Source: Methanolobus zinderi (GTDB lineage: Archaea; Halobacteriota; Methanosarcinia; Methanosarcinales; Methanosarcinaceae). Taken from it: DNA of 24,000 nucleotides. The DNA lies in assembly GCF_013388255.1 (NCBI RefSeq), contig NZ_CP058215.1, positions 2,137,332 through 2,161,331 on the forward strand, given 5' to 3'. The position numbers were made by a program, and so were the translations under genes. The notes below the pieces were generated by a model. The model did not search any database, was not told the origin of the DNA, and saw nothing but the letters and a program-made list of their open reading frames with translations. Positions 1,185 through 24,000 of the stretch are shown here, piece by piece; the first letter of the stretch is position 1; every line of letters begins with the position of its first letter.

Positions 1185-1185
1185 C

Positions 1186-8001: not shown

Positions 8002-8037
8002 ATTATATTATAAATGTACCTCTAAAGAGAATCTGCC

Positions 8038-9183
8038 ATGAATATTCTGGTAATTCCAACCACTGACTGGATAAAGCATCCTGTCCCTAATAGACTGAAC
8101 TTTATCTTTGATAAGATTGCACAAAAACATAACGTTCATGTCATCTATTTCAGGCTGAAGAGATTCGAGAACCAGACTCCGAGAAAAACAAAATGCAAGC
8201 TGCATGATGTGACTCTTTTCAATATGGATGACCCTTCCTCATACTATCTTGCCAACAGTTTTTTTCATTTTTACAAACTGTACAGCATCATAAAGAAGGA
8301 AAATATCGATGTGATAGTTTCTGCCAACATATTGCCTGCCTTTTTAGCGAATTTCGTGAAAGGAAGTAAACCTATAATCTTTGATTATCTGGACCATTAC
8401 GAGGAATCGGCTGCTACATATTATCCAGATACTTTCTTCGGGAAGATAGTCAAAGGAGGTGTGAGGTCCATAATACGATACAACCTTATAAAAGCAGATT
8501 CTGTCATAACGGTAACTCACGAGTTTAAACGATTCCTCAACTCAGTAGGTGCCCGTGACGTGCATGTGATTCCAAACGGAGTGGATACATCTGTTTTTGA
8601 ACAGCTTGATACTGAAGAAGCTAAAATGAGTCTTGGACTTGAAGGCAATGTTATCGGCTATGTAGGCTCACTTGAGTACTGGGTCGACCTGGAAACGGTG
8701 ATCGAGGCACTTCCTGAGCTTGACGTTAAATTGCTTATTGTAGGACCTGGCTTGTTTACTGATTATGGAGAAAAGATAAAAGAACTTGCAGAAAAGCTGG
8801 ATGTAATCGACAAAATCATATTCACAGGCAGAGTTGAGTACGATCAGCTTTACAGATATATCTGTGCAATGGATATCGGGCTGAATCCCCTGAAGCACGT
8901 GAAGAAAAATGAGATAACTGTGGGGGGAAAAGTGTTCAATTACCTTGCATGCGGGAAACCTGTGCTAACAAGCAGGATGACTGCCCTTGAAAATCTTCTT
9001 GGTGATAGTCTTTTCTACTATGACGACAAGTATACATTTGCAAAAATAGTCAGACAAATTCTGAAAAAAGATACCGAAAATGAAAAATATATTGAAATTG
9101 CCAAAAAATATGACTGGAAAAACATTGCAGAGGAATACGAGGAAAGGTTGTTTATCGCTGCAGTAAATGAAGACAATACATGA
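8038..9183 (+). CDS. Glycosyltransferase family 4-like (GT-B)
   Basis: N-terminus 'MNILVIPTTDW', central 'VIGYVGSLEYWVDLETVIEA', and C-terminal 'GGKVFNYLACGKPVLTS', consistent with an archaeal GT1/GT4-type fold. Confidence 0.75.
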   Translation: MNILVIPTTDWIKHPVPNRLNFIFDKIAQKHNVHVIYFRLKRFENQTPRKTKCKLHDVTLFNMDDPSSYYLANSFFHFYKLYSIIKKENIDVIVSANILPAFLANFVKGSKPIIFDYLDHYEESAATYYPDTFFGKIVKGGVRSIIRYNLIKADSVITVTHEFKRFLNSVGARDVHVIPNGVDTSVFEQLDTEEAKMSLGLEGNVIGYVGSLEYWVDLETVIEALPELDVKLLIVGPGLFTDYGEKIKELAEKLDVIDKIIFTGRVEYDQLYRYICAMDIGLNPLKHVKKNEITVGGKVFNYLACGKPVLTSRMTALENLLGDSLFYYDDKYTFAKIVRQILKKDTENEKYIEIAKKYDWKNIAEEYEERLFIAAVNEDNT

Positions 9184-9240
9184 GACTTTATGAAATGCTA
9201 ATTTTTAAACACAATAATATTCTTGATAATGGGTGCAACT

Positions 9241-11754
9241 ATGGAGAATAACAAACCGGACAGAGATATAAAAAGCCAGATAAAAAACAGCTGGCCTTAC
9301 ATGGTCCTGATTTCATTTATAGCACTTGTTGCTTTTTACATAAGAATCAGACCATCAGAAAGTGTGTTCATATCCGAGGACTTCATCAGGTTCGGGGGCA
9401 ACGACCCCTGGTATCATATGCGTATGGTATACACTCTCCTTGAAAATTATCCTCGCGGCATGTTCTATAACCCGCTTACGAATTATCCTTCAGGCAGTTA
9501 CATCCATTTTGGCCCGCTTTTTGACCAGATGATAGCTTTCGTAGTAATGATTATAGGAGCAGGCAGCCCGGGCACAGAACTTGTAAACACCTTCGGGGCT
9601 TATTTTCCTGCAATCCTTGGTGCTCTGACAGTTATACCGGTATATTTTATAGGCAAATATGTCGGTGGTCACAAAACAGGAATAATTGCTGCCTTGCTTA
9701 TCGCTGTAGCACCCGGACAATTCCTTTCGCGCTCGATCATAGGTTTTACCGATCATCATGCTGCAGAAACATTATTTAGTACTCTTTTTATGATGTTCTT
9801 CATGCTTTCTGCGATTAAGGCAAAGGAGAAAGAAATCGGTTTTATTGACTTAAAAAGTAAGGACTGGAAAAAATTGAAGTCACCATTCATACTTGCTGCT
9901 ATAGCGGGTGTTATGTATGCAGCCTTCCAGCTAATATGGCCTGGTGCGCCCTTATTTGGCCTTATAATTGTGATTTTTGCTGCAGTCCAGTATACGATTG
10001 ATCATCTCAATAATAGATCAACCGATTACTTGGGAATGATTGGAATTACAACTTTTCTGATAGGAATGATCCTGATAGCTCCATTCATTCATCCTGAAAT
10101 GGGTGTTTCAACATTCTTTTACTCATGGTTCCATGTAATATCAGCAATTGCAGCAATTGGCGCATTTGTGTTCATGAGTTTACTGCATAAAGAACTCAAC
10201 CGAAGGAAATTCAAACCTTACATGTATCCCATTGTACTGGTTTCCTTACTGCTTGTAGGACTGATATTCACAAGAATAGTGGCACCTTCCATATATTCAT
10301 TGGCAATAGATACTCCGGCTATTATATTCGGGATTAAAACAGGTGGTGCTGCCACAATTGCAGAAGCTTCTTCAATATTCTACTCTGGAGGAAACTTTAC
10401 ACTTCAGAATGTATGGTACAATTTTGCAGTTGGTTTTTACCTGTCAATTATCGCAATGCTTATGCTGGCTTATAGCGTAGCCAGAAAACACAGACCACAG
10501 GAAACACTCCTTCTTGTCTGGAGTTTTTTCATACTACTTGCAATCTACGGACAAAACCGTTTTGCATACTATTATTCAGTGAATGTTGCAATACTCAGTG
10601 CATATTTCGCAAGCAAAATCCTAAATATATCAGGCTGGGAAGATTTAGAAAATGCTTACAACAGAAAGATTCAATCTATAAGCGAAATAGGACCGTTCCT
10701 TAAAAATAATCTCAAAATCCACCATATATTATCACTAGCTTTGATCCTTCTTATTGTTGTATACCCAGGCTATTCTCTGGCAATGCAGCAATCCCAGGGA
10801 ACAGGTGGACCTAATGGATACTGGATAGAATCTCTTTTATGGATGAACGAAAGCACTCCGGATCCTGGAATGGATTTTTATGCAATATATGAGGCACCTG
10901 AAAAAGGAGAGATTTTTGACTACCCCGACTCAGTCTACGGAGTGATGTCCTGGTGGGATTATGGACATTGGATCGAGACAATAGGCCATCGAATACCTAA
11001 CGCCAACCCCTTCCAGGCAGGAATTGGTGGCCGCAGAAACAGCATTGAAGAAGAAAATCAACCAGGTGCTTCAACATTCTTCACAGCCCAGTCTGAAGAA
11101 GAAGCAACCGCAGTCCTTGAAGCGGTTCACCCAGACCCTGATAAGGCAGGTGCACGTTATGTAGTCTCTGACGTTGAGATGGCCACCGGTAAATTCTATG
11201 CTATGTCAGCCTGGACACTTGATACGGATGGGTATTATCAATCAGTTCAAACTAATGCCGGATACCAGTATGTGCCAGGGGAGAGATATTTCAACTCTAT
11301 GGAAGCAAAACTGCACATCTTTGATGGTACTGGTCTGCAGCAGTACCGTATGGTACACGAATCACCCATAGGAAACACCCAGGAACCAGGATATAAGAAT
11401 GTCTATAACGTGCTATACGGAGGCAGCCTGGCGGAGATCAATACGGGATACGTCAAAATCTTCGAGTACGTAGAAGGCGCACAGGTAACAGGCACAGCAC
11501 CCGAAGGTGAGACCGTCACCATCAGCAGCACGATCCGTACCAGCCAGGGACGCACGTTCATTTACTCTCAGTCAGAGACCTCTGATGGAACTTACTCCTT
11601 TACTGTACCATACTCCACAGAAGGTCCGATATCAGGAGAGACACAGTTCGATACCGCACCGACCGGACCTTACACCATAAGCTATGGTGGCACACAGGAA
11701 GAGGTTAGTGTCAGTGAAACAGATGTGCTTGAAGGAAATGTGATAGAGGTTTAA
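9241..11754 (+). CDS. aglB: Archaeal oligosaccharyltransferase AglB (STT3 family)
   Basis: The WWDYG catalytic motif is encoded at 10951-10965. 'NDPWYH' and 'FTDHHAAE' are acidic/metal-binding loops. There are multiple N-terminal TM helices, and 'DVEMATGK' (11170-11193) lies in the DK-motif position. The ORF is open from TTG 9223, with ATGs at 9229 and 9241. I chose 9241 because GGGTG lies 6 nt upstream. Confidence 0.95.
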   Translation: MENNKPDRDIKSQIKNSWPYMVLISFIALVAFYIRIRPSESVFISEDFIRFGGNDPWYHMRMVYTLLENYPRGMFYNPLTNYPSGSYIHFGPLFDQMIAFVVMIIGAGSPGTELVNTFGAYFPAILGALTVIPVYFIGKYVGGHKTGIIAALLIAVAPGQFLSRSIIGFTDHHAAETLFSTLFMMFFMLSAIKAKEKEIGFIDLKSKDWKKLKSPFILAAIAGVMYAAFQLIWPGAPLFGLIIVIFAAVQYTIDHLNNRSTDYLGMIGITTFLIGMILIAPFIHPEMGVSTFFYSWFHVISAIAAIGAFVFMSLLHKELNRRKFKPYMYPIVLVSLLLVGLIFTRIVAPSIYSLAIDTPAIIFGIKTGGAATIAEASSIFYSGGNFTLQNVWYNFAVGFYLSIIAMLMLAYSVARKHRPQETLLLVWSFFILLAIYGQNRFAYYYSVNVAILSAYFASKILNISGWEDLENAYNRKIQSISEIGPFLKNNLKIHHILSLALILLIVVYPGYSLAMQQSQGTGGPNGYWIESLLWMNESTPDPGMDFYAIYEAPEKGEIFDYPDSVYGVMSWWDYGHWIETIGHRIPNANPFQAGIGGRRNSIEEENQPGASTFFTAQSEEEATAVLEAVHPDPDKAGARYVVSDVEMATGKFYAMSAWTLDTDGYYQSVQTNAGYQYVPGERYFNSMEAKLHIFDGTGLQQYRMVHESPIGNTQEPGYKNVYNVLYGGSLAEINTGYVKIFEYVEGAQVTGTAPEGETVTISSTIRTSQGRTFIYSQSETSDGTYSFTVPYSTEGPISGETQFDTAPTGPYTISYGGTQEEVSVSETDVLEGNVIEV

Positions 11755-11780
11755 ACCCATCACATCCCTTCCAGCACACT

Positions 11781-11790
11781 TCTTTTTTAT
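11781..11790 (+). terminator. Oligo-T tract downstream of aglB (archaeal-type terminator candidate)
   Basis: The tcTTTTTTat run (T6 at 11783-11788) lies 29 nt after the aglB stop. Confidence 0.4.
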
Positions 11791-12042
11791 CAGTTAATAA
11801 TGCAGTTCAATAGAATTTCTGGTCAGATGATCAACATAATTCTGGTAAAAACAATTGTCAAACTAATTACAATGCGACCACCCGCCGCAGGCGGCGCGCT
11901 CCTTCGCTGCTGTAACGAAAAATGTTATTCAGTATCCAAACTAGAGACCTTAAAGTTGCAATCGCAGGCTTTTTACAGAGAAACTCATATAGAAATCCTG
12001 TAGAAAAAGTGTTCAAAGGATATTCTGTAGATTATTTTCTTT

Positions 12043-12097
12043 CATCCTGCGGGAAAACGCCGGCTTCGCCGGGCCCTCCGGGATGGTTTGAGTTTTT
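12043..12097 (+). other. GC-rich imperfect stem-loop followed by T5 (terminator-like element or 3' end of a small RNA)
   Basis: Pairings read by eye: CATCC(12043-47)/GGATG(12081-85), GGG(12051-53)/CCC(12074-76), CCGGC(12060-64)/GCCGG(12068-72). TTTTT follows at 12093-97. Confidence 0.3.
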
Positions 12098-12146
12098 CAT
12101 GATCCTGGTAAGTTAACACAGCCCTAGAAAGATATTCATCTCTCCG

Positions 12147-12155
12147 CTATATAGA
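12147..12155 (+). promoter_or_regulatory. TATA-box candidate for the hacB-type operon
   Basis: cTATATAGa lies about 40 nt upstream of ATG 12192. A GTGAG Shine-Dalgarno-like element sits at 12184-12188. Confidence 0.35.
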
Positions 12156-12191
12156 AATAGCATTATGTAGAACCTAGCCCAAAGTGAGAAC

Positions 12192-12686
12192 ATGGACAGA
12201 ATAATCAAAGGAAAAGCATGGGTATTCGGGAATGATATCGATACTGACGTCATAATACCCGGGAAATATCTCCGTACCACCGATATGCAGGTATTTGCAG
12301 ACCATGCAATGGAAGGTGTGGATCTGGATTTCTCCAAAAAAGTGCAGAAGGGAGACATCATCGTTGGCGGAGACAACTTCGGATGCGGCTCATCCAGGGA
12401 GCAGGCGCCTCTTGCACTTAAACATGCAGGAGTATCATGTGTTGTGGCAAGGTACTTTGCCAGGATATTCTTCAGGAATGCCATAAATGTCGGACTCCCA
12501 CTTATAGAAGCTGATGTTGAGTGTAAGGAAGGGGACGAGCTCGAAATAGACCTTCTGGAGGGTACTGTGAAAGTGAACGGCAAGATTTACCAAGGAAACA
12601 AGCTTCCTGACTTCCTGCTGGAGATACTCACCGATGGCGGGCTTGTGCCACACAGGAAAAAGTTGCAGAAGCAGGAGAGCGTTTAA
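12192..12686 (+). CDS. hacB: Aconitase-family hydro-lyase small subunit (LeuD family), homoaconitase (HacB/AksE)-type loop
   Basis: '[15 protein letters not shown]' and '[14 protein letters not shown]' are LeuD-family motifs. The specificity loop reads YLRT (12267-12278), as in the M. jannaschii homoaconitase small subunit MJ1271 (R26/T27). The isopropylmalate isomerase MJ1277 has a Val-Tyr-type loop instead. Confidence 0.65.
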
Positions 12687-12695
12687 CTTACACAT

Positions 12696-13550
12696 ATGAT
12701 CTTTCCTGACGAATATAAGTACGTGGGAATGAGCAGGGCCATTCCGGAAGATGCTGACGACAAGCGAATCTATTTTCTTACTCAATACCTGATCGTAGAG
12801 GACACAGTGGATGATGTGGAAAAATATTCCCTGTACAGTGTGGAAAATACTGGTGAGCAGCTTTTAAGAGATGTGGACAATCTTGAGATGATTGCCTCAG
12901 GTGAAGAGATAATCCGGTATGATAAAGAACTCAATATCAAGGATCGTACACTTCTGATTGAAACCGCGCATAAGCTGTGTAAAGGAAAGGTCAATACTGT
13001 GATATTCACAGGTATAGATAAGCATGTGACCTTTGTTCACAAACCTGACCTCAAAGAGATACTTGACATAGAGATAGTCGATGTGGTGCCTCCTGAGCCC
13101 TCATGGCTGGCAAGTGTTGTCAGAAGACTCGAGGAAAGCGGCATATTCGGAGATCTTACGATCAGGTTCATGGATAATCTTACCGATCTTCGGCAGTTCG
13201 AAGGAGAGAATACAGTCTTTCCATGTTCATCCTCGGGACTGAAAGGAAAGTGTCTTGACTGCGATGTGATAAAAGAGGACGGGTCGCTGCTTGTGGGATG
13301 CGAGATCTCCAGGGAACTGTTCGAATCAAGGTTTCCGGACCTGGAGTATTCATTTATCAATATCTGTCCTTTCAAATCCGATGTATTCAAACCAGCAAAA
13401 TCCTTTATCACCAGGTGCTGCCGCTCGGAAAAGTCAGGTATCGTGACCATCAACGGCATTAAGGGTGCCGTGGTCCACTGGGGTGCATCGGAATTCTATG
13501 TGGCGGACACGATCTGGAAACTTGTTAGGGAGCTGCGGGGAGAGAACTGA
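12696..13550 (+). CDS. Uncharacterised protein, Cys-rich C-terminal third, co-operonic with hacB-type and aksF-type genes
   Basis: The 284-aa ORF has a 9-nt gap to the upstream gene and a 14-nt gap to the downstream gene. It has eight Cys, seven of them between residues 177-242 (FPC, KCLDC, VGC, NIC, RCC). I recognised no family motif. Confidence 0.7.
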   Translation: MIFPDEYKYVGMSRAIPEDADDKRIYFLTQYLIVEDTVDDVEKYSLYSVENTGEQLLRDVDNLEMIASGEEIIRYDKELNIKDRTLLIETAHKLCKGKVNTVIFTGIDKHVTFVHKPDLKEILDIEIVDVVPPEPSWLASVVRRLEESGIFGDLTIRFMDNLTDLRQFEGENTVFPCSSSGLKGKCLDCDVIKEDGSLLVGCEISRELFESRFPDLEYSFINICPFKSDVFKPAKSFITRCCRSEKSGIVTINGIKGAVVHWGASEFYVADTIWKLVRELRGEN

Positions 13551-13564
13551 TCATAGGTGTCAAA

Positions 13565-14575
13565 ATGAAACTTGCAATTGTTGAAGGAGACGGAATCGGA
13601 AAAGAAGTTATTCCCGCGGCGGTCAGAGTACTGGATGCCCTGGAGATGGACGTTGAGAAGGTCTATCTTGAGTTGGGCTATGGCAAATGGGAAAAGACAG
13701 GATCTGCCATTACCGATCAGGACATAGAGATACTCAAAAGCTGTGACTGTATACTCTTTGGTGCTGTGACAACACCTCCTGATCCCAATTACAAGAGTGT
13801 GCTGCTGACGATCCGCAAGGAGCTTGACATGTACGCCAATATCCGCCCCATCAAGCCACTGCCATGTGTGGACTGCAACTTTGAGAGGGAAGATTTTAAT
13901 TTCGTGATCGTGCGAGAGAATACCGAAGGTCTCTATTCAGCAATAGAAGAGATTGGTGAAGATGCCTCATATACAAAGAGGATTGTGACCAGAAAAGGAT
14001 CAAAACGAATAGCTGAATATGCCTGTAAGCTTGCAAAAAGCAGGAAGAATGAACTTACAATAGTCCACAAATCCAATGTTATGAAATCGGACAAGTTGTT
14101 CCTTGATGTCTGCCGCGAAACCGCTTCTGAGCATGAAGTTGAGTACAGTGACGAACTTGTGGATTCGATGGCCTATAAGTTGATGGTCTCCCCTGAAAAA
14201 TTTGATGTGATAGTAACAACGAACCTTTTCGGGGATATTCTCAGTGACATGTCAGGGGCACTTGTAGGAGGGCTTGGACTTCTCCCCAGTGCAAATATAG
14301 GTACAGAGCATGCATTCTTTGAGCCGGTCCACGGAAGTGCACCTGATATCGCAGGAGAAGGGATCGCAAATCCCATCGCAGCCATATTGAGTCTTAAGAT
14401 GTTGCTCGAATGGCATGGGGATATCATGCAGGCAGGTCTTGTGGAGGAAGCTCTGGAATCTTCCCTCAACATGGGAGTTACAACACCAGATCTTGGCGGA
14501 AGTTTCACAACTGAAGAAGTGACAGAGGCCATAGTTGAGCATATAGAAATTAAAATTAGAAACGGGTCTTCCTGA
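13565..14575 (+). CDS. aksF: Isopropylmalate/(homo)isocitrate dehydrogenase family; probably the AksF-type enzyme of 2-oxosuberate synthesis
   Basis: 'IVEGDGIGKEV', 'RENTEGLYS' and 'TTNLFGDILSD' are beta-decarboxylating dehydrogenase signatures. The AksF rather than LeuB assignment rests only on linkage to the YLRT-type small subunit. Confidence 0.55.
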   Translation: MKLAIVEGDGIGKEVIPAAVRVLDALEMDVEKVYLELGYGKWEKTGSAITDQDIEILKSCDCILFGAVTTPPDPNYKSVLLTIRKELDMYANIRPIKPLPCVDCNFEREDFNFVIVRENTEGLYSAIEEIGEDASYTKRIVTRKGSKRIAEYACKLAKSRKNELTIVHKSNVMKSDKLFLDVCRETASEHEVEYSDELVDSMAYKLMVSPEKFDVIVTTNLFGDILSDMSGALVGGLGLLPSANIGTEHAFFEPVHGSAPDIAGEGIANPIAAILSLKMLLEWHGDIMQAGLVEEALESSLNMGVTTPDLGGSFTTEEVTEAIVEHIEIKIRNGSS

Positions 14576-14641
14576 AAGACCTGTTCTAACTGGTTCAATC
14601 CTTTTTCGAAAAGGAAAGATTGGACTTTCTTTTTTCTTTTT
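14564..14641. terminator. Convergent terminator region between the dehydrogenase gene (+) and arlJ (-)
   Basis: Hairpin GGTCTT(14565-70)/AAGACC(14576-81) has the TGA stop in its loop. A second hairpin is TCCTTTT(14599-605)/AAAAGGA(14609-15). T-runs follow at 14630-35 and 14637-41. Confidence 0.5.
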
Positions 14642-16305
14642 CACGTAATTCCAAGCAGTGAAGATACTGCTGCCATTGTTACCACGGCACTTGCTGCTGA
14701 TATCCAGACCATTATAACAAAGTCTATGGTCGCACTGAGCATATGACCACCATCAACCACCCTGATAAGGATCGCAGACATCAGGGAATGACCTACCATG
14801 ATAGCCAGAACCATGTTTGCAAGCAGGTCCATACTTCCTATATTTGTGTAAAGCACCATACCCATTGACATACCAGGAGGCATCTCCACCGCAGAGAACA
14901 TGTCCTGCATCAGTCCCACAACACCCAGCGAGATATACATGGTAAAACCGATACCACCGGTCAGTCCGTAGAGCACACCCACAAGACTGCCTGCGGACTG
15001 GGTCCTTTTCTTCCTAAGAGTGACTATCCTGTGGAAATTGGTTGCAATAATATCGCCAATAACCTCAGGTTTACCACCTAGGTTCGTGGCCTCCACGAAC
15101 ATCACACTGAAACGCTGGATAAGATTGCTTCCCGTATTGGCAGAGAATATCTCCCACGAGGTCATTTTATCGATCCTGGTTACCAGCATCTTGTAAAGGT
15201 TGTTCACATCCTTTGTAAGCGGACCGAAGTCGTGTGCCCTCAGTGCCCTCAGTGCATCATCTATCACACCACCCCTGGCACCTGCAGAGCTTCCAAGGGA
15301 GCGTATAAAAGCAGGGAAGTTCTCGTCTTTTCTTCGTATGCTTTTCTCGATCTTGCGGGCAACATATCCGGTATAGACCAGTGGAGTGAATATCATTGCA
15401 ACTGCTATAGATGTTTCAATCTTGCCATATAGTGTGACAAGCACAGCCACAACAATACAACCTGCTATCGAGATGGGAATGGAACGATACATTTTCAGCT
15501 TGTCACTGGTAAGTAGTTTTGATCTGCTCCATGCAGGATCCTTCGGGATCTTGTTCTTGGTGAAAACAACCATTACCAGATCTGTAAGAAGGAAGACGAC
15601 CACTACTATACCCATTAGAAGTTCTGCGTTCATTCCCGTAATAACCGGCATGATAACCGCAAATGAAGCCATGAAAATCAGTGACATCACCATGGATACG
15701 AAGAGTTCCTTGATGACCTCTACGGCATAGAGAGCACCGTTATACATGGATTCATATTCGTTCATTACAACGTTCTGCTCCGCAAAAAGGAAGGATTTGA
15801 CATCCTCTCCTGACTGGAGTGCATGGGCAAACCTGTCAAGAAAATCCTCGAATATTATGGAAGGTGTTCTCTTTGATATGAACCTGCATCCGTCCGCAAG
15901 ACTGAGGTTCCAGACGGTCACAAGATCATATATTTTCTTTGTCTCTTCCGCAAGTTCCTGATAGTCCTCATTTTCGGAAACGATGCGGATGATATCAAGC
16001 CTTGGAGTCTCTGCAGTTGCGATCGATCCCATCTGGGTAATGTAATAGTGCATGTTGTTATCGATACGGGATGCCTTTGCACCCAGAATTGACAAAGGAT
16101 AGGCGAATGCAAATATGAAACATATTACCGTAACAAGTGCGGGGATGTACTGTGCCGGACCAACAAAGAGAGTCGGGAGAAGGACATACATGAGTAAGGC
16201 AAAGAAAATACCAAACCCGATGATGGGCAAAGCAAACTTCTTGAGATAGGCTTTTGGCTCCATCCCCAGATTCTTGAATGCCTTCTCATAACTCACAGAA
16301 CTCAC
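14641..16305 (-). CDS. arlJ: Archaellum membrane platform protein ArlJ (FlaJ)
   Basis: A 554-aa polytopic membrane protein with large cytoplasmic loops. It is the last gene of the arl operon, directly after the ArlI ATPase. The GTG start abuts the arlI stop. Confidence 0.9.
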   Translation of the reverse strand: MSSVSYEKAFKNLGMEPKAYLKKFALPIIGFGIFFALLMYVLLPTLFVGPAQYIPALVTVICFIFAFAYPLSILGAKASRIDNNMHYYITQMGSIATAETPRLDIIRIVSENEDYQELAEETKKIYDLVTVWNLSLADGCRFISKRTPSIIFEDFLDRFAHALQSGEDVKSFLFAEQNVVMNEYESMYNGALYAVEVIKELFVSMVMSLIFMASFAVIMPVITGMNAELLMGIVVVVFLLTDLVMVVFTKNKIPKDPAWSRSKLLTSDKLKMYRSIPISIAGCIVVAVLVTLYGKIETSIAVAMIFTPLVYTGYVARKIEKSIRRKDENFPAFIRSLGSSAGARGGVIDDALRALRAHDFGPLTKDVNNLYKMLVTRIDKMTSWEIFSANTGSNLIQRFSVMFVEATNLGGKPEVIGDIIATNFHRIVTLRKKRTQSAGSLVGVLYGLTGGIGFTMYISLGVVGLMQDMFSAVEMPPGMSMGMVLYTNIGSMDLLANMVLAIMVGHSLMSAILIRVVDGGHMLSATIDFVIMVWISAASAVVTMAAVSSLLGIT

Positions 16306-17964
16306 CTATACTACAAACGGAAGACCGTCCACACCATGCTTATAGAAATTCACGATTATCTCAAGCACATCATAATAATCATCGATACCGCGTGAGCGCA
16401 TCTCATCAAGTATCCTGGCTCTGAGGAAAAGATCCTGATATATCAGTCTCTTGTCCTCATAACCGAGTTTTGTTGCGATCTTGTTCTCAAGGATGAAACT
16501 GTTGTTCAGACCCCTGAAGTTATGTGTGTCAGTCTCCGGGTCCCACTGGAACACGGCCCTGGTGACAACTCCACCAACTTCCTCATAATATCCTTCTATC
16601 TCCTCAATCGCAAGACAGCGCCTCAGGAACTTACCCTTACGATAAACCGCAGACAATATCATTGCCACATTCAGGTTATCTATGAAAGTCACGGGAACAT
16701 TGATGGGATCTGCCGTCAGACGCTGGATCATCTTGGTGACAGCAGATGCGTGAAATGTAGCCAGTACAGGGTGTCCTGTCTGCATACCCTGAAAAGCCAC
16801 ATTACCTTCGGCTCCTCGAATCTCACCAACGATAATGTAGTTCGGCCTTGAACGCAGTGCAGCCTTGAGCAGAGCAAATGTATCCACCCTGGAATCGGGT
16901 GGTCCCTCCTCACGGGTGATAAGCTGCTGCCACACAGGTTGCGGTGGCTGGACCTCTGCCGTATCCTCTGCTGAGAATATCTTTGCCTTCGGGTTAACAA
17001 AGGAAAGACATGCATTCAGCATTGTGGTCTTACCACTTGCTGTCTCGCCACTGAAGAAGACACTCATGCCGTTCTCAAGACACATCCACATGTAAGCTGC
17101 CATTTCAGGGCTCAGCGCACCCCAGTTGATAAGCTGGATGATACTTACGGGCACCTCACTGAATTTACGCATGGTAAAACTGCTACCACGCCTACTGACA
17201 TCTATACTGTAAATGATGTTAATACGGGAACCATCAGGAAGAGCACCGTCGGCTATGGGGCGGGCATCACTGACCGGACGTCCGATACGCTCACTCATAC
17301 TCCTGAGCCAGTCATCCAGTCCCTGCTCATCCCCGAAAGTGAGGTTTGTCTTCACAGTATCGAAAATCTTGTGGACGATAAAGACATTATCCACACCGAT
17401 ACTGCTGATATCCTCAAGGTACGGGTCCCTGATGATAGGCTCGATCGGACCGGAGCCGATGATATCTCTCTCAATATGATAGAGGATCTTGTTGTACTCG
17501 TTCTGGGTCATCGGCACTTTCTTCTGGACAGGCATCAGTTTCTGGATTATATCGAACTTCCCTGCTACCTCCTCATCCATGCTGCCACCAGAACCCACAT
17601 CCACTGAATCGTTGAGAAGCTTGGTGATCAGGTCCTTTAGTTCTGATTCGGATTCGGGAACCGGTTCCAGAGAGGATTTTTCCAGGATTATACTCAGGAC
17701 AGCATCATATTTCTTCTTTTCAAGCCCGTTCAATAATGGTTCAATACCATAATACCGGACCTCTCCAAGTTCGGCTGTACCGTAAAGATGAATGAAGACA
17801 GGGTCTCCCACAGGTAAAATTATATTGACGTTTTCCGAATCAATGTCCTTGGACAGACTTACCATGAATGTTGGTTCATCGGCGTCGTTTTCTTTCATGA
17901 ACTTCCTGACATAATCACCAAGATGCGGATTTCTCTGTATGGCTTTCTCAAATTCCTGATCCAT
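16306..17964 (-). CDS. arlI: Archaellum motor ATPase ArlI (FlaI), type II/IV secretion ATPase family
   Basis: Walker A 'GETASGKTT', 'IIVGEIRG' (Asp/Walker B box) and 'TGHPVLATFHA' (His box). The length of 552 aa and the operon position fit ArlI. Confidence 0.93.
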   Translation of the reverse strand: MDQEFEKAIQRNPHLGDYVRKFMKENDADEPTFMVSLSKDIDSENVNIILPVGDPVFIHLYGTAELGEVRYYGIEPLLNGLEKKKYDAVLSIILEKSSLEPVPESESELKDLITKLLNDSVDVGSGGSMDEEVAGKFDIIQKLMPVQKKVPMTQNEYNKILYHIERDIIGSGPIEPIIRDPYLEDISSIGVDNVFIVHKIFDTVKTNLTFGDEQGLDDWLRSMSERIGRPVSDARPIADGALPDGSRINIIYSIDVSRRGSSFTMRKFSEVPVSIIQLINWGALSPEMAAYMWMCLENGMSVFFSGETASGKTTMLNACLSFVNPKAKIFSAEDTAEVQPPQPVWQQLITREEGPPDSRVDTFALLKAALRSRPNYIIVGEIRGAEGNVAFQGMQTGHPVLATFHASAVTKMIQRLTADPINVPVTFIDNLNVAMILSAVYRKGKFLRRCLAIEEIEGYYEEVGGVVTRAVFQWDPETDTHNFRGLNNSFILENKIATKLGYEDKRLIYQDLFLRARILDEMRSRGIDDYYDVLEIIVNFYKHGVDGLPFVV

Positions 17965-17984
17965 TCAACCGCCTTCCTCAATAA

Positions 17985-18680
17985 TCATGATACCGAAGCT
18001 ATCTCTACAACGAGCCCGACCTTTGGTTCTATCCTGAAACCTATCATCTGACCCACCGGACCCTTGGCCCCGGTGAATTTGTTGACCACAATCGTACGCT
18101 TTACCTCACTTCCCAGAGGCCTTGATTTGAGAGTTATGTAGACGTCACAGGACGACCTGAACATTGCAGCGATATCCTCACTGAGCTGATTTGGCTCGAT
18201 CGTGAGTATGATGACCTTTCCCATACCATTGAGCTTTTTAAAAAAGGATATCAGGTCAAGGCTTTTTTCGGTATTTGCACTGTATTTTATCAAAGATGAG
18301 ATCGTGTCTATAACTATCACGTTCTTCTCGAAGAGCTCTTCAGCAGCCATTAATCTCTCAAGGAAATCAAAACGTGATTTTGCAGCCTGTACAAGGGGAA
18401 TTACCGGAATGTACAGCAGGTTACCGTTCAGAAGGAAAGGCGCTATCGGATAGTCCATGGAATACATCTGGTTTATGAAACCCTTTGTTGTCAGTTGAGT
18501 GGAGACAAAGGTAACACTCACTTCATTCTCATTCAGACCATATGCCAGCCGCTGGGTGATCGAACTCTTGCCACCGCCGCTCCCTCCTTCTATCACCACA
18601 AGGGAGCCTGCCGGGAATCCTCCACCAAGCTTATCGTTGAGCTCGTCTCTTGCTACTTGAAAAGAATAGATCTTTGCCAT
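17985..18680 (-). CDS. arlH: Archaellum KaiC/RecA-like ATP-binding protein ArlH (FlaH)
   Basis: Walker A 'GGSGGGKS' and Walker B-like strand 'NVIVIDTISSL'. The protein is 231 aa and lies between arlG and arlI. A GGAGG element precedes the ATG. Confidence 0.9.
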   Translation of the reverse strand: MAKIYSFQVARDELNDKLGGGFPAGSLVVIEGGSGGGKSSITQRLAYGLNENEVSVTFVSTQLTTKGFINQMYSMDYPIAPFLLNGNLLYIPVIPLVQAAKSRFDFLERLMAAEELFEKNVIVIDTISSLIKYSANTEKSLDLISFFKKLNGMGKVIILTIEPNQLSEDIAAMFRSSCDVYITLKSRPLGSEVKRTIVVNKFTGAKGPVGQMIGFRIEPKVGLVVEIASVS

Positions 18681-18689
18681 TTTCCTCCA

Positions 18690-19196
18690 TTAAGTTATAA
18701 AGCTCATACCACCGGATTTTCCGTTCTCGGCTGCAACAAGTATGCGATGGTCACCCTCGTTCAGGGGAGAAGGATCTGTTATGACATTGATGATAAGAAC
18801 ATCTCCTGGACGCCATATGACATCACCATCGGGAAGATCCATATCGACATTTGCTGACTCTATCATGACACCATCTACCATGACCGTTACAAATTCGGGT
18901 ACAAGTTCGGTCTTGCCTGTGTTCTTTGCATAGAAGGTATAGTAATTCCCGGTGGAGTCATAGGGAATGACATAGGGGTCATTGACAATGGTTATGTCTG
19001 TTCTCATCTGATCGGAGAGCAACTTACTGCTAACAGAGGATGAGGCTACCATAGACTGGATATCGGCTGAGAGTACGGTAACGACTCCCATTGCGATAAT
19101 AATGGCTGCAATAAAGAATATCATATGAGTTACAGCCGTCTCTGCCTTCTCAGCTTTGAAAAGCGAATGCCTTACATCCTGGTGTTCATCCCTCAT
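18690..19196 (-). CDS. arlG: Archaellum protein ArlG (FlaG)
   Basis: A 168-aa protein with a single N-terminal hydrophobic helix 'MIFFIAAIIIAMGVVTVL' followed by a beta-rich domain. It sits immediately upstream of arlH, as in euryarchaeal operons. Confidence 0.75.
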   Translation of the reverse strand: MRDEHQDVRHSLFKAEKAETAVTHMIFFIAAIIIAMGVVTVLSADIQSMVASSSVSSKLLSDQMRTDITIVNDPYVIPYDSTGNYYTFYAKNTGKTELVPEFVTVMVDGVMIESANVDMDLPDGDVIWRPGDVLIINVITDPSPLNEGDHRILVAAENGKSGGMSFIT

Positions 19197-19229
19197 ACTT
19201 TGCTACCGTCTGCTAAGGTATTTGATGAT

Positions 19230-19277
19230 ATTCGATAATATAATCGAATTTATTATATATTGACAATGGTATATAAA
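19230..19277 (-). promoter_or_regulatory. Candidate internal promoter plus operator in the arlF-arlG spacer
   Basis: The minus strand reads TTTATATA (complement of 19270-19277). About 25 nt downstream lies a perfect 7-bp inverted repeat ATTCGAT-aatata-ATCGAAT (19230-19249). This is the only long spacer (105 nt) in the operon. Confidence 0.35.
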
Positions 19278-19301
19278 TTTGATACCAGACAGTTACCGGT
19301 T

Positions 19302-19733
19302 TCAAACAATATAGGTAGAATAATCGGCGACACCATTCTCAGTCACAACTTTCACCCGGTGGCTTCCTGTGCCCTCAAGGCCGGAAACCGTAAGGTTGCG
19401 GGTTTCCTCCGGGACCCATGTCACAGTGGTGTCGGAAAAGGCATAGTCCTCGATACTTCCGTCGATCAGGATGTTTAGCCTATCAAAGCTTAAGGTTTCA
19501 CTTCCGGTGTTTGTCATGGTTACCGTAAGGTCATAGGTCCCATTGAAAACACCCGCAATGGCATTATCGATCTCAATATCAGTGTTCAGACTTTTGCTCT
19601 GCATCTCGTGTTGCTGGGCAGATGCATCTGCTTCTATCTCAGCAGATGTTGTCAGGGTCGTATAGGACAGAGTCCCGAGAATGACCGCGGAGATAAAAAG
19701 GATAACAACGACCACAGAAACCTCAAATCCCAT
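19302..19733 (-). CDS. arlF: Archaellum protein ArlF (FlaF)
   Basis: A 143-aa protein starting 'MGFEVSVVVVILFISAVILG' (an N-terminal TM helix typical of FlaF), followed by a beta-sandwich-like domain. It overlaps the upstream arlCE gene by 11 nt. Confidence 0.75.
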   Translation of the reverse strand: MGFEVSVVVVILFISAVILGTLSYTTLTTSAEIEADASAQQHEMQSKSLNTDIEIDNAIAGVFNGTYDLTVTMTNTGSETLSFDRLNILIDGSIEDYAFSDTTVTWVPEETRNLTVSGLEGTGSHRVKVVTENGVADYSTYIV

Positions 19734-21027
19734 AAAGTTCCTCCAGTCCGTGCTTCACCTTTGACATTTCCCGGTCCAGGGAGCTTAGCATGTTACGGTC
19801 GATCTTGCGTCCGCACAGGCGTTCGACAAACAGCAGGGACTTGGTGTGATCCTCAGGAAGCAGGCGCCATGTAGGTTTTTCCACATAATAGTCGATCCCA
19901 CGGGCATAGGCCATTACCTCGGATCTCACATCCTCGCTGATCCAGCCGATATCCACATAATAATCCAGTGCATCCATAAGATTATTCCTGCCCACACGCT
20001 CCATCAGGAATTCTATCCAGTTGAGCAGTACGACAACGCTTGTGGGGTCGGTCCTTATGTTCTCAAGGCGCACCATGGGAACAAGGTCCTTTTTGACCTT
20101 CCGGGCATCTTCATCGCCCTCATTGTCAGTAAGATCCTCAACAATCTCATCCCCGGCACCAGATACCGATTGCGGAGTCACGGGGACACCCTGCCTTTCG
20201 ATCTCATCAACCCTTAAGGAAATACTGCTTGTGGTTTCCGCAAGTTCCAGTATATTCTGATCAATGAGTTCGTTCTTGTTCGAGAGTTCCTCTGTTTTTG
20301 CGGTGAGACCCTCTATGCTCTCATGCAGCATGGCCATGGCATCGGCGAAGGCTGTGAGTTTGGATTCCACATCCTGCATCTTGGAATCGAGTTCCTGCGA
20401 GATACCCGGCATGTTCAATTTATGGTCAATTGCATCCATATCGTTCTTGAAGACTACCAGCAGATCACCAATCTCAGTGATCCTGTTCTCCACTTTCTCG
20501 AACCTCTCTATCGTGGCTCTGGAAGCCACATCGTCACCCACGAAGGGATTCACCTGATTGGACACGATCTCATAGAGAGAAAGTAACTCGAGTACACTCT
20601 GATCGATCTTGTCCACGGTCTTTTTGATCTCTTCGTTCTCACGCTGCACCATGCTAAGTGTTACGTCAGCTTTGGAAACCTTCGATTCGACCTCTTTGAT
20701 CCTCTTGGCGTTGAGTTCGATGGCCTCCTTGTTCTCAGAAGAGCCTGACTGACCGGAACCACCCGGACCTCCCATACCGGGCGGAGCACCACCCGGAGGA
20801 GCTGCACCTGGTGGTGCCATGCCTGGCGGACCTGAGGGAGCGTTTGCACCCGGCGGGCCCCCGGGAGGCATACCTGAACCCAGGTCCGGAACCGAACCCA
20901 GATCAGGAACACTATCCATAAAAGGGGGTTCGTTGGAGGCAAAGGGAGAACTACTCCCCTTCTTCTTTCCTTTTTTAGCAAGGATGCCTGAAGTTGCCTT
21001 TTTTATCTTATCAGTCAAGCCGGACAT
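19723..21027 (-). CDS. arlCE: Archaellum accessory protein ArlCE-type fusion (FlaC domain plus FlaD/E domain) with a Pro/Gly-rich N-terminal extension
   Basis: The coiled-coil segment ends in 'LLSLYEIVSNQVNPF', the FlaC_arch signature. The C-terminal 'LLNWIEFLMERVGRNNLMDALDYYVDIGWISEDV' is the FlaD/E domain signature. Confidence 0.85.
   Translation of the reverse strand: MSGLTDKIKKATSGILAKKGKKKGSSSPFASNEPPFMDSVPDLGSVPDLGSGMPPGGPPGANAPSGPPGMAPPGAAPPGGAPPGMGGPGGSGQSGSSENKEAIELNAKRIKEVESKVSKADVTLSMVQRENEEIKKTVDKIDQSVLELLSLYEIVSNQVNPFVGDDVASRATIERFEKVENRITEIGDLLVVFKNDMDAIDHKLNMPGISQELDSKMQDVESKLTAFADAMAMLHESIEGLTAKTEELSNKNELIDQNILELAETTSSISLRVDEIERQGVPVTPQSVSGAGDEIVEDLTDNEGDEDARKVKKDLVPMVRLENIRTDPTSVVVLLNWIEFLMERVGRNNLMDALDYYVDIGWISEDVRSEVMAYARGIDYYVEKPTWRLLPEDHTKSLLFVERLCGRKIDRNMLSSLDREMSKVKHGLEELYGI
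20737..20916 (-). repeat. Low-complexity coding tract: tandem SVPDLG x2 followed by PPG-type Pro/Gly repeats
   Basis: Residues 38-97 of ArlCE read DSVPDLGSVPDLGSGMPPGGPPGANAPSGPPGMAPPGAAPPGGAPPGMGGPGGSGQSGSS. The SVPDLG duplication is encoded at 20878-20913. Confidence 0.85.
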
Positions 21028-21182: not shown

Positions 21183-22202
21183 GTGACACGTAAGAAGAAA
21201 TTCGAACACAGGTTATTTTCCGACAAAGACGGAAAACGATTCGCAACTCCTGAAAATGTTGCAAAATACAGGGCCAAACGCCTAAAATGCAACACCATCG
21301 CAGACATCAGTTGCGGGATCGGCGGGCAGACGATCTATTTTGCAGAAGAATGCGAGAAGGTCTTTGCAATAGAGATAGACCCTAAAAAGATAGAGTATGC
21401 CAGGAAAAACTGCAGGCAACTTGGTATCGATAATGTCGAATTCATCTGCGCCGATGCACTTTCCCCTGAAGCTATAGAAAATTTACCTAGGCTTGATGTT
21501 GTTTTCTCGGACCCTGCAAGACCACCAAGTGAAAAAAGGCGTGATATCAATAGTTTACAGCCTTCGATTCCCGAAGTAATGGATGCCTACAGGGATAAGA
21601 CATCGAACTTTGTCTTCGAGGCCCCACCTCAGCTTACACCAGGGAGGATTCCCTTTGACTGTGAGAAAGAATACCTATCCCTGGATGGCAAGATGAACCG
21701 TCTGGACCTCTATTTCGGGGAACTGAAAAAATGTGAGATATCAGCCATAGCACTTCCTTCCGGAGCCAGGATCGAATCGGACGCTACTAACAGCCCGGAT
21801 ATTCAGGTGGTCAGTAAGCCGGCACTGTATGCCTATGAGCCGGAGGAATCGGTTGAAAGGGCAGGACTTCTTGCAGAGCTTGCCGGAGAAGTAAAAACAC
21901 AGGCAAAGGATATCGGTGTTTTCCCGATTGATAAAAAGCGTATTTTCCTGACATCAATGGAAGATATAGATCATCGATTGTTCAAGAACAGATACAAAGT
22001 GCTCAACACTCCGGCGTTTGACATAGGCCGAATCAACAAATATCTTAAGGAGAACGGTTTCGGGACCGTATTGTTACGAGCTTCGGTGGATCCGAAAGAA
22101 TACTGGGATATACGTAACAGTCTGGAAAAAGGACTCAGAGGAGACAGAAAAGCACATCTTTTCCTCAAAGGACAAAATGCCATATTATGTGAGACACTGT
22201 AA
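21183..22202 (+). CDS. Class I SAM-dependent methyltransferase (RNA-methyltransferase-like, Methyltransf_15/THUMP-like-associated type)
   Basis: 'IADISCGIGGQTIYFA' is SAM motif I, 'VFAIEIDP' is motif II, and 'VFSDPARP' is a catalytic DPxR-type motif. GTG start. The substrate cannot be inferred. Confidence 0.7.
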   Translation: MTRKKKFEHRLFSDKDGKRFATPENVAKYRAKRLKCNTIADISCGIGGQTIYFAEECEKVFAIEIDPKKIEYARKNCRQLGIDNVEFICADALSPEAIENLPRLDVVFSDPARPPSEKRRDINSLQPSIPEVMDAYRDKTSNFVFEAPPQLTPGRIPFDCEKEYLSLDGKMNRLDLYFGELKKCEISAIALPSGARIESDATNSPDIQVVSKPALYAYEPEESVERAGLLAELAGEVKTQAKDIGVFPIDKKRIFLTSMEDIDHRLFKNRYKVLNTPAFDIGRINKYLKENGFGTVLLRASVDPKEYWDIRNSLEKGLRGDRKAHLFLKGQNAILCETL

Positions 22203-22204
22203 AC

Positions 22205-22579
22205 TTACTGACCATCCATTTCAAGCAGAGATCTGGTCCTCTTTATCAGTTCCTTTCTGCTGAATGGTTTTGTGATGTAGTCGTCCGCTTTTATGACATG
22301 CAGGCCCAGCATCTTGTCGAATTCCTGGCTTTTTACGGTCAGCATGGCAACCGGGAGACCCGGATTATTCTCTTTTATCTTGTGGAATGTTTCCCATCCG
22401 TTCATGTCGGGCATCATTATATCGAGCAGTATTGCATCAGGTAGCTCTTCTTTTATGAACTCCAGGCATTCAAAACCACTGTTTGCCCCGATAACATCTA
22501 TGCCTTCAGATTCAAGAATAAGTTTCACAAGGTCTATGGTATCTGGCTCATCATCTACGACCATGACTTTGGGACACAT
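22205..22579 (-). CDS. Stand-alone response regulator receiver (REC) protein
   Basis: A 124-aa protein with the acidic pair 'VVDDE', phospho-acceptor context 'LLDIMMPDMNG', 'MLTVKS' and 'DYITKPF' (conserved Lys). Confidence 0.88.
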   Translation of the reverse strand: MCPKVMVVDDEPDTIDLVKLILESEGIDVIGANSGFECLEFIKEELPDAILLDIMMPDMNGWETFHKIKENNPGLPVAMLTVKSQEFDKMLGLHVIKADDYITKPFSRKELIKRTRSLLEMDGQ

Positions 22580-22644
22580 TTTTTATAACTCCTGAGAAAA
22601 CGATCTTTCCAGATGAGAATCTAATACACTCTTTAAATATATAT

Positions 22645-23703
22645 TTAATCCTCTTCTGTCCATCCAAGTCTTCTCATGACCATCTTAATACGGGCTTTAA
22701 CTTCCCTTTTGTCGAATGGTTTTGATATATAATCGTCAATTCCAAGTTCCATACCCTTGACCTTATCTTCGACCGCGGTCTTTGCGGAGATCATTATAAC
22801 AGGTATATCACTTGCGGTTTTACTTTCCTTAAGCTGCTCGACAACCTCATATCCGTCCATATCAGGCATCATGATATCCAGCAGTATAAGATCCGGTTTT
22901 TCCTTCAGGGCGGTTTCGATGGCCTGTTCACCGTTGTAGGCGACCAGGAACTCGTAAGGTTCGTTTATAAGCGAGAGTTTAAGAAGTTCGGGAATATCAG
23001 GTTCATCATCCACGATAAGGATCTTCAGTTTATCACTTCTGATCTTCTTTCTGGAGTATTCCAGTTTGATAGAACCCTCTTCCACGGTGTACAGAAAGTC
23101 AAAATCCTTCAGTCCGACCTGTGCATGCACCTCACCTATATTTGTGGCTTCAAGTACGACATCAAAGAATGACTTGATAAGCATTTCCGTATCAGCGGAA
23201 ACTATGTCCTTCAGGAGTATGGAAACCATACCGCCCTGCTTCTCACGTATCTTTTTCTCCACAAACTGCATGAAGTTCTCGACCACCTGCATGGTGTCTC
23301 CTGCAAGAACGTTCATATTATCGATAACAAGCAGTGATCCGGGATTTTTCTCAAAAAGGTTGGATATGTGTGACGCCATCTTTGTATAATCTGCCGCAGA
23401 GCTACAGTAAAGAGTGTTCTTCTGAGGCTCCGTACCTGGCATTTCAATGTCAATGAACCAGATACGATCCATGAATCCATCGATATCCAGACCGAAATCC
23501 CCGAATTTGTTCAGGACCTTATCCCTGGGAGAATTAAGACAGAGCCAGACCACATTCCTGTCAGCATTGTTAGTCAGTACATCATAGACATGAAAATAGA
23601 CAAGACGTTCCACAAAGCTGTCTACAGGGGCAAAGAACAGAGAGGTCTTGTTTGCCAATTCACTCCTTAAAGTGGCCAGAATTTCAGCAGTCCGATCTTC
23701 CAT
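22645..23703 (-). CDS. Fusion protein: N-terminal ArlH/KaiC-like domain lacking a Walker A P-loop, plus C-terminal receiver (REC) domain
   Basis: The REC domain (residues ~226-345, nt ~22669-23028) has DD231/232, D276 (22876-22878), S306 and K328. The N-terminal domain parallels the ArlH encoded in this window: 'NLFEKNPGSLLVIDNMNVL' vs ArlH 'ELFEKNVIVIDTISSL', and 'GGMVSILLKD...FFDVVLEA' vs 'GKVIILTIEP...SCDVYITL'. The P-loop position reads 'FFAPVDSFVERL' instead of 'GGSGGGKSSITQRL'. Confidence 0.6.
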   Translation of the reverse strand: MEDRTAEILATLRSELANKTSLFFAPVDSFVERLVYFHVYDVLTNNADRNVVWLCLNSPRDKVLNKFGDFGLDIDGFMDRIWFIDIEMPGTEPQKNTLYCSSAADYTKMASHISNLFEKNPGSLLVIDNMNVLAGDTMQVVENFMQFVEKKIREKQGGMVSILLKDIVSADTEMLIKSFFDVVLEATNIGEVHAQVGLKDFDFLYTVEEGSIKLEYSRKKIRSDKLKILIVDDEPDIPELLKLSLINEPYEFLVAYNGEQAIETALKEKPDLILLDIMMPDMDGYEVVEQLKESKTASDIPVIMISAKTAVEDKVKGMELGIDDYISKPFDKREVKARIKMVMRRLGWTEED

Positions 23704-23789: not shown

Positions 23790-24000
23790 TTATTTGATCG
23801 GGGTGATCCGTACCTGCGGATAGCCTGAACTGAAATCCATCTGGGCCACATACAATCCTGTTTTGGGTACAATACCATACATGACAAGAGTCTTGTCAAC
23901 GTTCTCGAACTTCCAGTGGGTCGTGGCCATATGTGCCACCGAATCGGTTATCTTCTGGCCATGTTTTGTAACAGCAAGCACGACATTATCAGTAGTTTTA
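23790..24000 (-). CDS. Hypothetical protein, C-terminal fragment (5' end outside the window)
   Basis: The minus-strand frame stays open from the window edge (…KTTDNVV precedes the listed GTG at 23981) to TAA at 23790-23792. I recognised no motif. Confidence 0.4.
   Translation of the reverse strand, partial: KTTDNVVLAVTKHGQKITDSVAHMATTHWKFENVDKTLVMYGIVPKTGLYVAQMDFSSGYPQVRITPIK

Follow-up and report, generated by a model that had tools for sequence, protein, structure and literature searches.

A catalogued iKaiC-REC response regulator, with a predicted inactive KaiC-type domain, near the archaellum operon of Methanolobus zinderi

Close to the archaellum operon of Methanolobus zinderi lies a gene for a 352-amino-acid (aa) protein that joins a KaiC-like N-terminal domain without a P-loop to a C-terminal receiver (REC) domain. 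What kind of protein is this, and does it belong to the archaellum? We analysed the 24,000-nucleotide (nt) stretch that carries the gene (contig NZ_CP058215.1, positions 2,137,332 to 2,161,331; hereafter the window). The gene is a member of a known, uncharacterised class of archaeal response regulators, iKaiC-REC. We favour, with some reserve, the reading that it is an iKaiC-REC orthologue whose dead KaiC domain serves as a phosphorylation-switched interaction output, making the protein a lineage-specific signalling adaptor. The features at issue, with their window coordinates, are the following.

22645-23703, minus strand: iKaiC-REC response regulator, 352 aa (open reading frame (ORF) listing, exact-sequence look-up)
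23038-23703, minus strand: inactivated KaiC/RecA-fold domain, aa 1-222 (AlphaFold2 (AF2), Foldseek, hhalign)
23608-23631, minus strand: degenerate Walker A site, APVDSFVE, aa 25-32; GGSGGGKS in ArlH (profile-profile alignment)
22684-23022, minus strand: REC domain of the fusion, aa 228-340 (PF00072, 107.6 bits against a cut-off of 30.2)
22876-22878, minus strand: codon of the phospho-acceptor D276
22205-22579, minus strand: stand-alone receiver, 124 aa (PF00072 quintet D9, D10, D53, T81, K104)

A preliminary description of the window, made from the sequence, did not recognise the fusion as a described system. However, the architecture is listed by Galperin et al. (2018, J Bacteriol; PMC5847659), whose Table 2 of archaeal response-regulator outputs contains 'iKaiC (PF06745)' in the arrangement iKaiC-REC for the Methanosarcinaceae. 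That entry comprises 9 proteins, exemplified by ABE53050/Q12U26 (Mbur_2185), from six genera of the family including Methanolobus, and the architecture is credited there to Makarova et al. 2017 (mBio). Two orthologues, AGB48738/Metho_0471 (P0049 in our set) and APH38317/BHR79_01660 (in our P0051 cluster), are tagged KaiC-REC in the supplement of the same paper; the first matches the N-terminal domain (N-domain) of the window protein at E 2.2e-60, and the listed orthologues span E 1e-60 to 1e-81. The protein itself is identical to WP_176965706.1 of M. zinderi by exact-sequence look-up, and the N-domain of the Methanolobus sp. UBA118 orthologue (L001) is 100% identical to that of the window.

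We found 50 close homologues and 54 species-level loci, and all 54 loci fell into the genera of Galperin et al. or into unclassified metagenome-assembled genomes (MAGs) of Methanosarcinaceae and ANME-3 (anaerobic methanotrophic archaea). An exhaustive profile search of 1.84 billion representatives returned 52 proteins, among which fusions of the N-domain to REC occurred only in the Methanosarcinaceae genera and MAGs that have iKaiC-REC. The window protein and the published class thus share the inactivated KaiC-type N-domain, the C-terminal receiver, a length of ~352 aa and the same six genera, and it is orthologous to the listed members; we found no structural difference between them. The published census concerns architecture alone, and a full-text literature search retrieved no other relevant paper on the family and, among accessible papers, no published function, partner or genomic-context analysis. 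Because the class is listed and tagged by Galperin et al. and no other relevant paper was found, we describe it as catalogued but uncharacterised. One annotation of the family, from the Joint Genome Institute, reads 'CheY-like chemotaxis protein/KaiC/GvpD/RAD55 family RecA-like ATPase'.

The receiver half of the fusion is canonical, as the preliminary description had stated, although its acidic pair had been numbered one position too low (231/232) and is in fact D232/D233. Together with D276, S306 and K328 this pair completes the receiver quintet. The top NCBIfam matches of the fused REC were the receiver halves of RpaB, PhoB and YycF (E ~1e-36), which stayed far below the model cut-offs because the DNA-binding halves of those models match nothing in iKaiC-REC. 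Judged by its residues, the fused REC is shown to be of the OmpR/PhoB type, with every residue required for phosphorylation at its predicted acceptor, D276. The domain is near-invariant between genera, including the alpha4-beta5-alpha5 region, and no DNA-binding or enzymatic domain was found in iKaiC-REC with Pfam or NCBIfam.

The gene for the 124-aa receiver follows 65 nt downstream on the same strand, and its acceptor loop (LLDIMMPDMNG) differs by one residue from that of the fusion (LLDIMMPDMDG), in agreement with what had been noted before. The two receivers are ~40% identical. We rejected the 124-aa protein as a CheY orthologue, given its CheY_Halo score of 65.6 bits against a cut-off of 200 and a window without che genes. 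In several genera the slot downstream of iKaiC-REC lacks this receiver. As had also been reported, no histidine kinase is encoded in the window, and none was found in the 10 kb upstream in one relative.

Family models gave little information on the N-domain. Pfam and NCBIfam returned no family match, only a sub-threshold Elong_Iki1 hit (E 0.09), and PF06745 (gathering threshold 26.6 bits) did not match the window protein or its N-domain even at E ≤10; a precomputed PF06745 tag was present on one 83%-identical homologue. AF2, run on the family alignment, gave a confident model of residues 1-220, with a predicted local distance difference test score (pLDDT) of 87.6 and a predicted template-modelling score (pTM) of 0.85. 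Its topology (beta1-loop-helix, then beta2 to beta6 and a C-terminal hairpin) follows the order of the RecA/KaiC core. Foldseek against the PDB yielded 469 matches at E ≤1e-3, led by 4yds, the FlaH/ArlH of S. acidocaldarius (E 7.9e-9, template-modelling (TM) score 0.61, probability 1.00); Elp4/5/6, PH0321, the CI domain of KaiC, RadA and PH0284 (TM 0.67) came next, all at probability 1.00. Structure and profile searches therefore agree that the N-domain is related to the RecA/KaiC fold, the point on which the preliminary description could have failed.

The nucleotide site within this fold has been taken apart. The loop APVDSFVE aligns with the Walker A motif GGSGGGKS of the window ArlH, so the replacement reported earlier stands, at nt 23608-23631. 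The end of beta-2, VTFVST in ArlH, reads VWLCLN in iKaiC-REC, without the Ser/Thr pair or a Glu, and WLCLNS fills the site of the catalytic EE of KaiC. The Walker B Asp is retained, D128 of iKaiC-REC aligning with D125 of ArlH. Without a P-loop and catalytic residues, the N-domain is predicted to be very unlikely to bind or hydrolyse ATP. It is well conserved for all that: 24 aligned sequences, ranging down to 45-50% identity, agree at 26 invariant positions, and A25, P26, V27 and D28 of the remodelled loop, together with a YC.S..DYTK motif, are almost invariant in the family. As read from these alignments, both domains of iKaiC-REC are shown to be under strong purifying selection.

How close is this domain to ArlH? 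The preliminary description had aligned the two block by block. BLASTP of the N-domain against the window ArlH was not significant (E 0.57), and its best local alignment already paired the second and third of those blocks. Comparison of the 24-sequence family profile with an ArlH profile in hhalign gave E 0.36 with an alignment out of register, and this narrow profile had no significant match among PDB sequences. When the family alignment was broadened with stand-alone relatives of the N-domain, hhalign against ArlH reached a probability of 93.5-95.3% and E values of 2e-7 to 2e-8 over ~170 columns, at a remote identity of 13-14%. The broadening was needed because the direct and narrow tests would wrongly suggest no relationship. 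The broadened alignment pairs, N-domain over ArlH, SLFFAPVDSFVE / VVIEGGSGGGKS, VVWLCLNS/VTFVSTQL, IWFIDI/LLYIPV, LLVIDNMN/VIVIDTIS, MVSILLKD/VIILTIEP and FFDVVLEA/SCDVYITL, in the same register as the earlier blocks. The parallels with ArlH are real and beyond chance.

A likeness to ArlH in particular did not survive the comparison with other members of the superfamily. The broadened profile matched KaiC, designed and natural, at E 1.9e-16 to 1e-10 and PH0186, SSO2452 and PH0284 at E ~1e-12, whereas FlaH reached 2.1e-8 (4yds) and 2.4e-4 (4wia); in bits, KaiC and the KaiC-like proteins scored 63 and FlaH 37. The Foldseek ranking was almost flat over KaiC-superfamily members, and the nearest relatives are stand-alone KaiC-like proteins that lack the P-loop. 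With FlaH/ArlH (4yds, 4wia) the N-domain shares a single RecA/KaiC domain of ~230 aa, the order of strands and helices and the Walker B Asp. It differs from ArlH in lacking Walker A, in carrying a receiver and in being encoded outside the arl operon, not between arlG and arlI, where the operon has its own arlH. The NCBIfam ArlH model (NF052589, cut-off 215 bits) did not match the 352-aa protein at E ≤0.1, compared to 274.7 bits for the true ArlH of the window. KaiC and the archaeal KaiC-like proteins (PF06745; PH0186, SSO2452, PH0284) have the same fold and gave the best broadened-profile matches (E 1.9e-16 to 1e-11), but iKaiC-REC has one domain instead of tandem CI/CII, a destroyed ATP site and no Pfam KaiC score.

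The non-fused proteins among the 52 of the exhaustive search are stand-alone and 180-300 aa long, and a Walker A motif is present in just 2 of the 52. Among 46 relatives scanned with Pfam, PF06745 matched 32, DUF835 26, DUF7504 25 and DUF7090 25, and one distant relative matched PF14417 (MEDS). The closest stand-alone relatives, all without a P-loop, are of two types, with a C-terminal coiled-coil tail (P0053, P0056, P0058, P0067) or a C-terminal transmembrane helix (P0057, P0059, P0062, P0065, P0066). No signalling or motility genes were found in the neighbourhood of the closest of them, P0053 (L057). Galperin et al. (PMC5847659) also list REC-DUF835 and MEDS signalling proteins as other iKaiC-type modules in archaeal two-component systems. 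REC-DUF835 resembles the window protein in combining an inactivated KaiC-type domain with a receiver, and stand-alone relatives of the N-domain match DUF835, one of them MEDS; the domain order is reversed, with REC N-terminal there, the sequence families differ, and the window protein matches neither model. We considered two possible recent origins of the N-domain and rejected both: a copy of the window ArlH is ruled out by the remote similarity (13-14% identity), and a copy of either half of the GvpD-like ATPase encoded upstream by hhalign, which gave E 0.002 for its N-terminal half and no match for its C-terminal half. On these comparisons, the N-domain is an old branch of the KaiC superfamily, apparently inactive and evolving separately.

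What could such a protein do? iKaiC-REC is most likely a phosphorylation-switched protein-interaction module. In the mechanism that we propose, the iKaiC domain would be the output, acting as a protein-interaction module; an unlinked histidine kinase would phosphorylate the receiver at D276, and phosphorylation would alter the self-association of iKaiC or its docking onto partners. The likely route would be the one known from OmpR-family receivers, dimerisation via the alpha4-beta5-alpha5 face, which is extremely conserved here, and the 124-aa receiver may be a competing phosphate sink or a relay partner. The most plausible partners would be P-loop-bearing KaiC-family ATPases, which have their nucleotide sites at the interfaces between subunits. 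Inactive RecA-fold paralogues of the Elp4/5/6 type form rings. Two candidates are encoded nearby in Methanolobus, a GvpD-like double-KaiC ATPase directly upstream and ArlH 4 kb downstream. iKaiC-REC probably serves the archaeal 'KaiC hub' as a lineage-specific adaptor for signalling, and in Methanolobus it may provide an input into archaellum or cell-surface control. It is probably not a dedicated archaellum component.

Two known systems offer partial precedents. In Haloferax, the arl cluster includes the gene for CirA, a KaiC-like repressor of arl transcription and of motility (PMC10983859). CirA resembles iKaiC-REC as a member of the KaiC family whose gene neighbours arl genes and whose role is regulatory, not structural; it differs in that the Haloferax volcanii protein lacks a receiver and has an intact Walker A on which its function depends, its gene is divergent from the arl genes, and its motility effect has been demonstrated. 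In Elongator, the inactive RecA-fold subunits Elp4/5/6 serve as modules of assembly or interaction; they rank high among the structural matches, and there is also the weak Elong_Iki1 hit. They belong to a eukaryotic tRNA-modification complex, and homology with iKaiC-REC is not evident beyond the fold.

The surroundings of the gene in the window are as follows.

23790-23999, minus strand: GvpD-like double KaiC-domain ATPase, last 69 codons of a 446-aa gene (translation; full orthologue L004:8574-9914)
21183-22202, plus strand: class I S-adenosylmethionine (SAM) methyltransferase, 339 aa (Pfam/NCBIfam)
14641-21027, minus strand: complete archaellum operon, arlC/D/E-F-G-H-I-J (NCBIfam equivalogs above cut-off for ArlF-J, Pfam)
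19723-21027, minus strand: arlC/D/E fusion (Pfam FlaC_arch and Arch_fla_DE)
19302-19733, minus strand: arlF (NCBIfam)
18690-19196, minus strand: arlG (NCBIfam)
17985-18680, minus strand: arlH (NCBIfam, 274.7 bits)
16306-17964, minus strand: arlI (NCBIfam)
14641-16305, minus strand: arlJ (NCBIfam)

The GvpD-like gene ends 86 nt before the start of iKaiC-REC. Its full-length orthologue matches PF07088 (2.3e-20), PF06745 (9.7e-11) and PF20440, and has a Walker A motif (GKPGTGKT) in the first half only, the second KaiC-like half being degenerate. Downstream, iKaiC-REC lies 1.6 kb from arlC/D/E and ~4 kb from arlH. The arl operon is set apart from the regulators by the methyltransferase gene, which is convergent with that of the 124-aa receiver, their stops 2 nt apart, and which in most genera is kept in the slot between the receivers and arlC/D/E. 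Its product has an N-terminal Methyltransf_15/31 region and a C-terminal half without assignment. The ArlC/D/E fusion protein is 434 aa long with a Pro/Gly-rich low-complexity N-terminus. No archaellin gene (arlA/B) lies upstream of the arl operon within the window, so the archaellins must be encoded beyond it.

On the plus strand, the remainder of the window (405-14575) is taken up by an N-glycosylation cluster that includes AglB and, after it, by leuD-like, DUF7714 and leuB-like genes. The cluster (405-11754) encodes an FkbM methyltransferase, several GT4/GT2 glycosyltransferases, an NAD epimerase and AglB/STT3 (9223-11754), as well as a 408-aa ORF (1186-2412) without a Pfam match. The DUF7714 protein (12696-13550, plus strand, 327 bits) lies between the leuD-like (Aconitase_C) and leuB-like (Iso_dh) genes, an order that is conserved in Methanococcoides (L055), where aglB adjoins the arl operon too.

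Across species, the sole universal neighbour of iKaiC-REC is alaS, located upstream in every locus with enough flank. The slot between alaS and iKaiC-REC is occupied by the GvpD-like ATPase gene in 5 MAGs and in each of the Methanolobus loci, where the gene shares the strand of iKaiC-REC. We scored the downstream context at the 46 species loci where it was determinable: arl genes lie ≤3.7 kb downstream in 35, across Methanolobus, Methanomethylovorans and Methanohalobium, and in Methanohalobium they begin 438 nt away on the same strand. In Methanococcoides and Methanohalophilus, iKaiC-REC is flanked by alaS and a gene for a class I aminoacyl-tRNA synthetase, and usp, thiD/N and purF follow on the far side of the latter. 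The arl operon of Methanococcoides sp. NM1 is elsewhere, adjoined by leuB, DUF7714, leuD and aglB, and no iKaiC-REC, receiver or methyltransferase gene was found in its neighbourhood. ANME-3 genomes have kept the flanks and iKaiC-REC and have lost the arl operon at this site; in 'Ca. Methanovorans' HMMV, a gene for a 345-aa multihaem cytochrome c (L030:12645-13682) replaces it between the methyltransferase and leuB.

Protein searches with ArlH listed matches in Methanolobus, Methanococcoides, Methanosalsum, ANME-2, Methanoperedens and Syntropharchaeia and none named Methanohalophilus, though iKaiC-REC orthologues of that genus are abundantly named, which suggests that the regulator may survive there without an archaellum. 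Conversely, many lineages that have ArlH (ANME-2, Methanoperedens, Syntropharchaeia) lack the iKaiC-REC family. The positional association with archaellum genes that the preliminary description had proposed is real at 35 of the 46 loci and fails at the other 11, the regulator being kept where arl is elsewhere, deleted or apparently absent. Since the arl operon is as syntenic with leuB, leuD and aglB as with the regulator, much of the adjacency is ordinary conservation of gene order at the family level.

Several observations weigh against an interaction output with the partners named above. The GvpD-like gene is missing from its position in Methanomethylovorans, Methanococcoides, Methanohalophilus and Methanohalobium, and no arl genes lie near iKaiC-REC in 11 of 46 loci; neither nearby candidate partner is therefore universal. 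The full-length AF2 model has two confident domains at a pTM of 0.64, compared to 0.85 for the N-domain alone, and gives no trustworthy inter-domain geometry. Moreover, the N-terminal place of the iKaiC domain suits an input (sensor) role equally well.

A possible, though doubtful, alternative is that the regulator works specifically with the upstream GvpD-like ATPase, phosphorylation tuning a GvpD-type activity such as control over how stable a transcription activator is. Among RecA-fold ATPases, pairing of an inactive paralogue with an active one is common. The ATPase is the immediate same-strand neighbour in every Methanolobus locus and nearby in 5 MAGs, it combines an intact Walker A with a second, degenerate KaiC-like half, and Elp456 are among the structural matches of the N-domain. 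However, the gene is not found between alaS and the regulator in the four genera named above, and neither half of the ATPase showed a detectable specific sequence affinity for the N-domain in hhalign.

It is unlikely that the protein is an ArlH mimic that docks on ArlH/ArlI rings and places archaellum assembly or rotation directly under two-component control. FlaH/ArlH is the top structural match in the PDB, the broadened profile reaches the window ArlH at E 2e-8, and the proximity of arl genes at most loci, down to 438 nt in Methanohalobium, would fit such a role. The ATP pocket of ArlH is at the oligomer interface and nucleotide binding governs the ArlH-ArlI interaction (PMC10117864). Both the oligomerisation of ArlH and its binding to ArlI are known to be points of regulation. 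On the other hand, FlaH leads Elp456, KaiC and RadA only marginally in structure, and by sequence KaiC and archaeal KaiC-like proteins are far ahead (63 vs 37 bits). The genomic record points the same way: an oppositely oriented methyltransferase gene intervenes between regulator and arl in Methanolobus, synteny with the arl operon is as strong for leuB, leuD and aglB, the Methanococcoides operon lies elsewhere without the regulator, ANME-3 lost arl at the site and kept the regulator, Methanohalophilus keeps a well-conserved regulator with no ArlH match named for the genus, and ANME-2, Methanoperedens and Syntropharchaeia have ArlH without the family. We hold a related proposal to be similarly improbable, namely that iKaiC-REC joins assemblies of ArlH or of the GvpD-like ATPase as a phosphorylation-gated pseudo-subunit and in this way switches archaellum assembly or expression in methylotrophic methanogens. 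If true, it would mean a direct two-component input to the archaellum, bypassing CheY and CheF.

We think it quite unlikely that iKaiC is an input domain that binds a small ligand at the remodelled nucleotide site, with the receiver as signalling output or phosphate sink. The domain stands N-terminally, the usual place of inputs, P26, V27, D28 and YC.S..DYTK are almost invariant, and MEDS, a proposed input domain that one distant relative matches (PF14417), is listed as iKaiC-type by Galperin et al.; yet the window protein does not match MEDS, and FilR1 and LtrR, cited in the same paper for their C-terminal receivers, still have an N-terminal output domain. The name 'response regulator transcription factor', given by NCBI to several orthologues, fits a receiver most like those of the OmpR/PhoB family, but the matches cover the REC half only and far below cut-off (e.g., 125 vs 330 bits), there is no Trans_reg_C or helix-turn-helix match and the rest of the protein folds as RecA/KaiC in the AF2 model, so that a DNA-binding role is effectively refuted.

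Two further observations concern archaellum genes in the set. In Methanolobus vulcani PL-12/M (L014:15756-19274), ArlI is encoded as one uninterrupted ORF of 1172 aa, of which ~620 aa form an in-frame insert; the insert has a weak Intein_splicing match (27.5 bits, cut-off 35.8) and probably represents an intein in this motor ATPase of the archaellum. One ArlH in the set (P0132), 85% identical to that of the window, is labelled 'MAG: ATPase [Clostridiales bacterium]' in NCBI and almost certainly comes from a mis-binned methanogen contig.

The present analysis adds the anchoring at alaS, the partial synteny with arl and the GvpD-like neighbour to what was catalogued, and does not describe a new kind of system. 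Little is understood of how methanogens regulate the archaellum, and the proposed 'KaiC hub' of archaeal signalling is backed by hardly any experiments. The iKaiC-REC family offers a compact, genetically tractable case: Methanolobus and Methanococcoides are both culturable, the protein connects a dead KaiC module to a standard phospho-switch, and in most species its gene has both the arl operon and the gene of an active KaiC-type ATPase beside it. Should phosphorylation prove to control docking of iKaiC-REC onto a KaiC-family ring, this would be a first mechanism that plugs bacterial-type two-component systems into the archaeal KaiC network.

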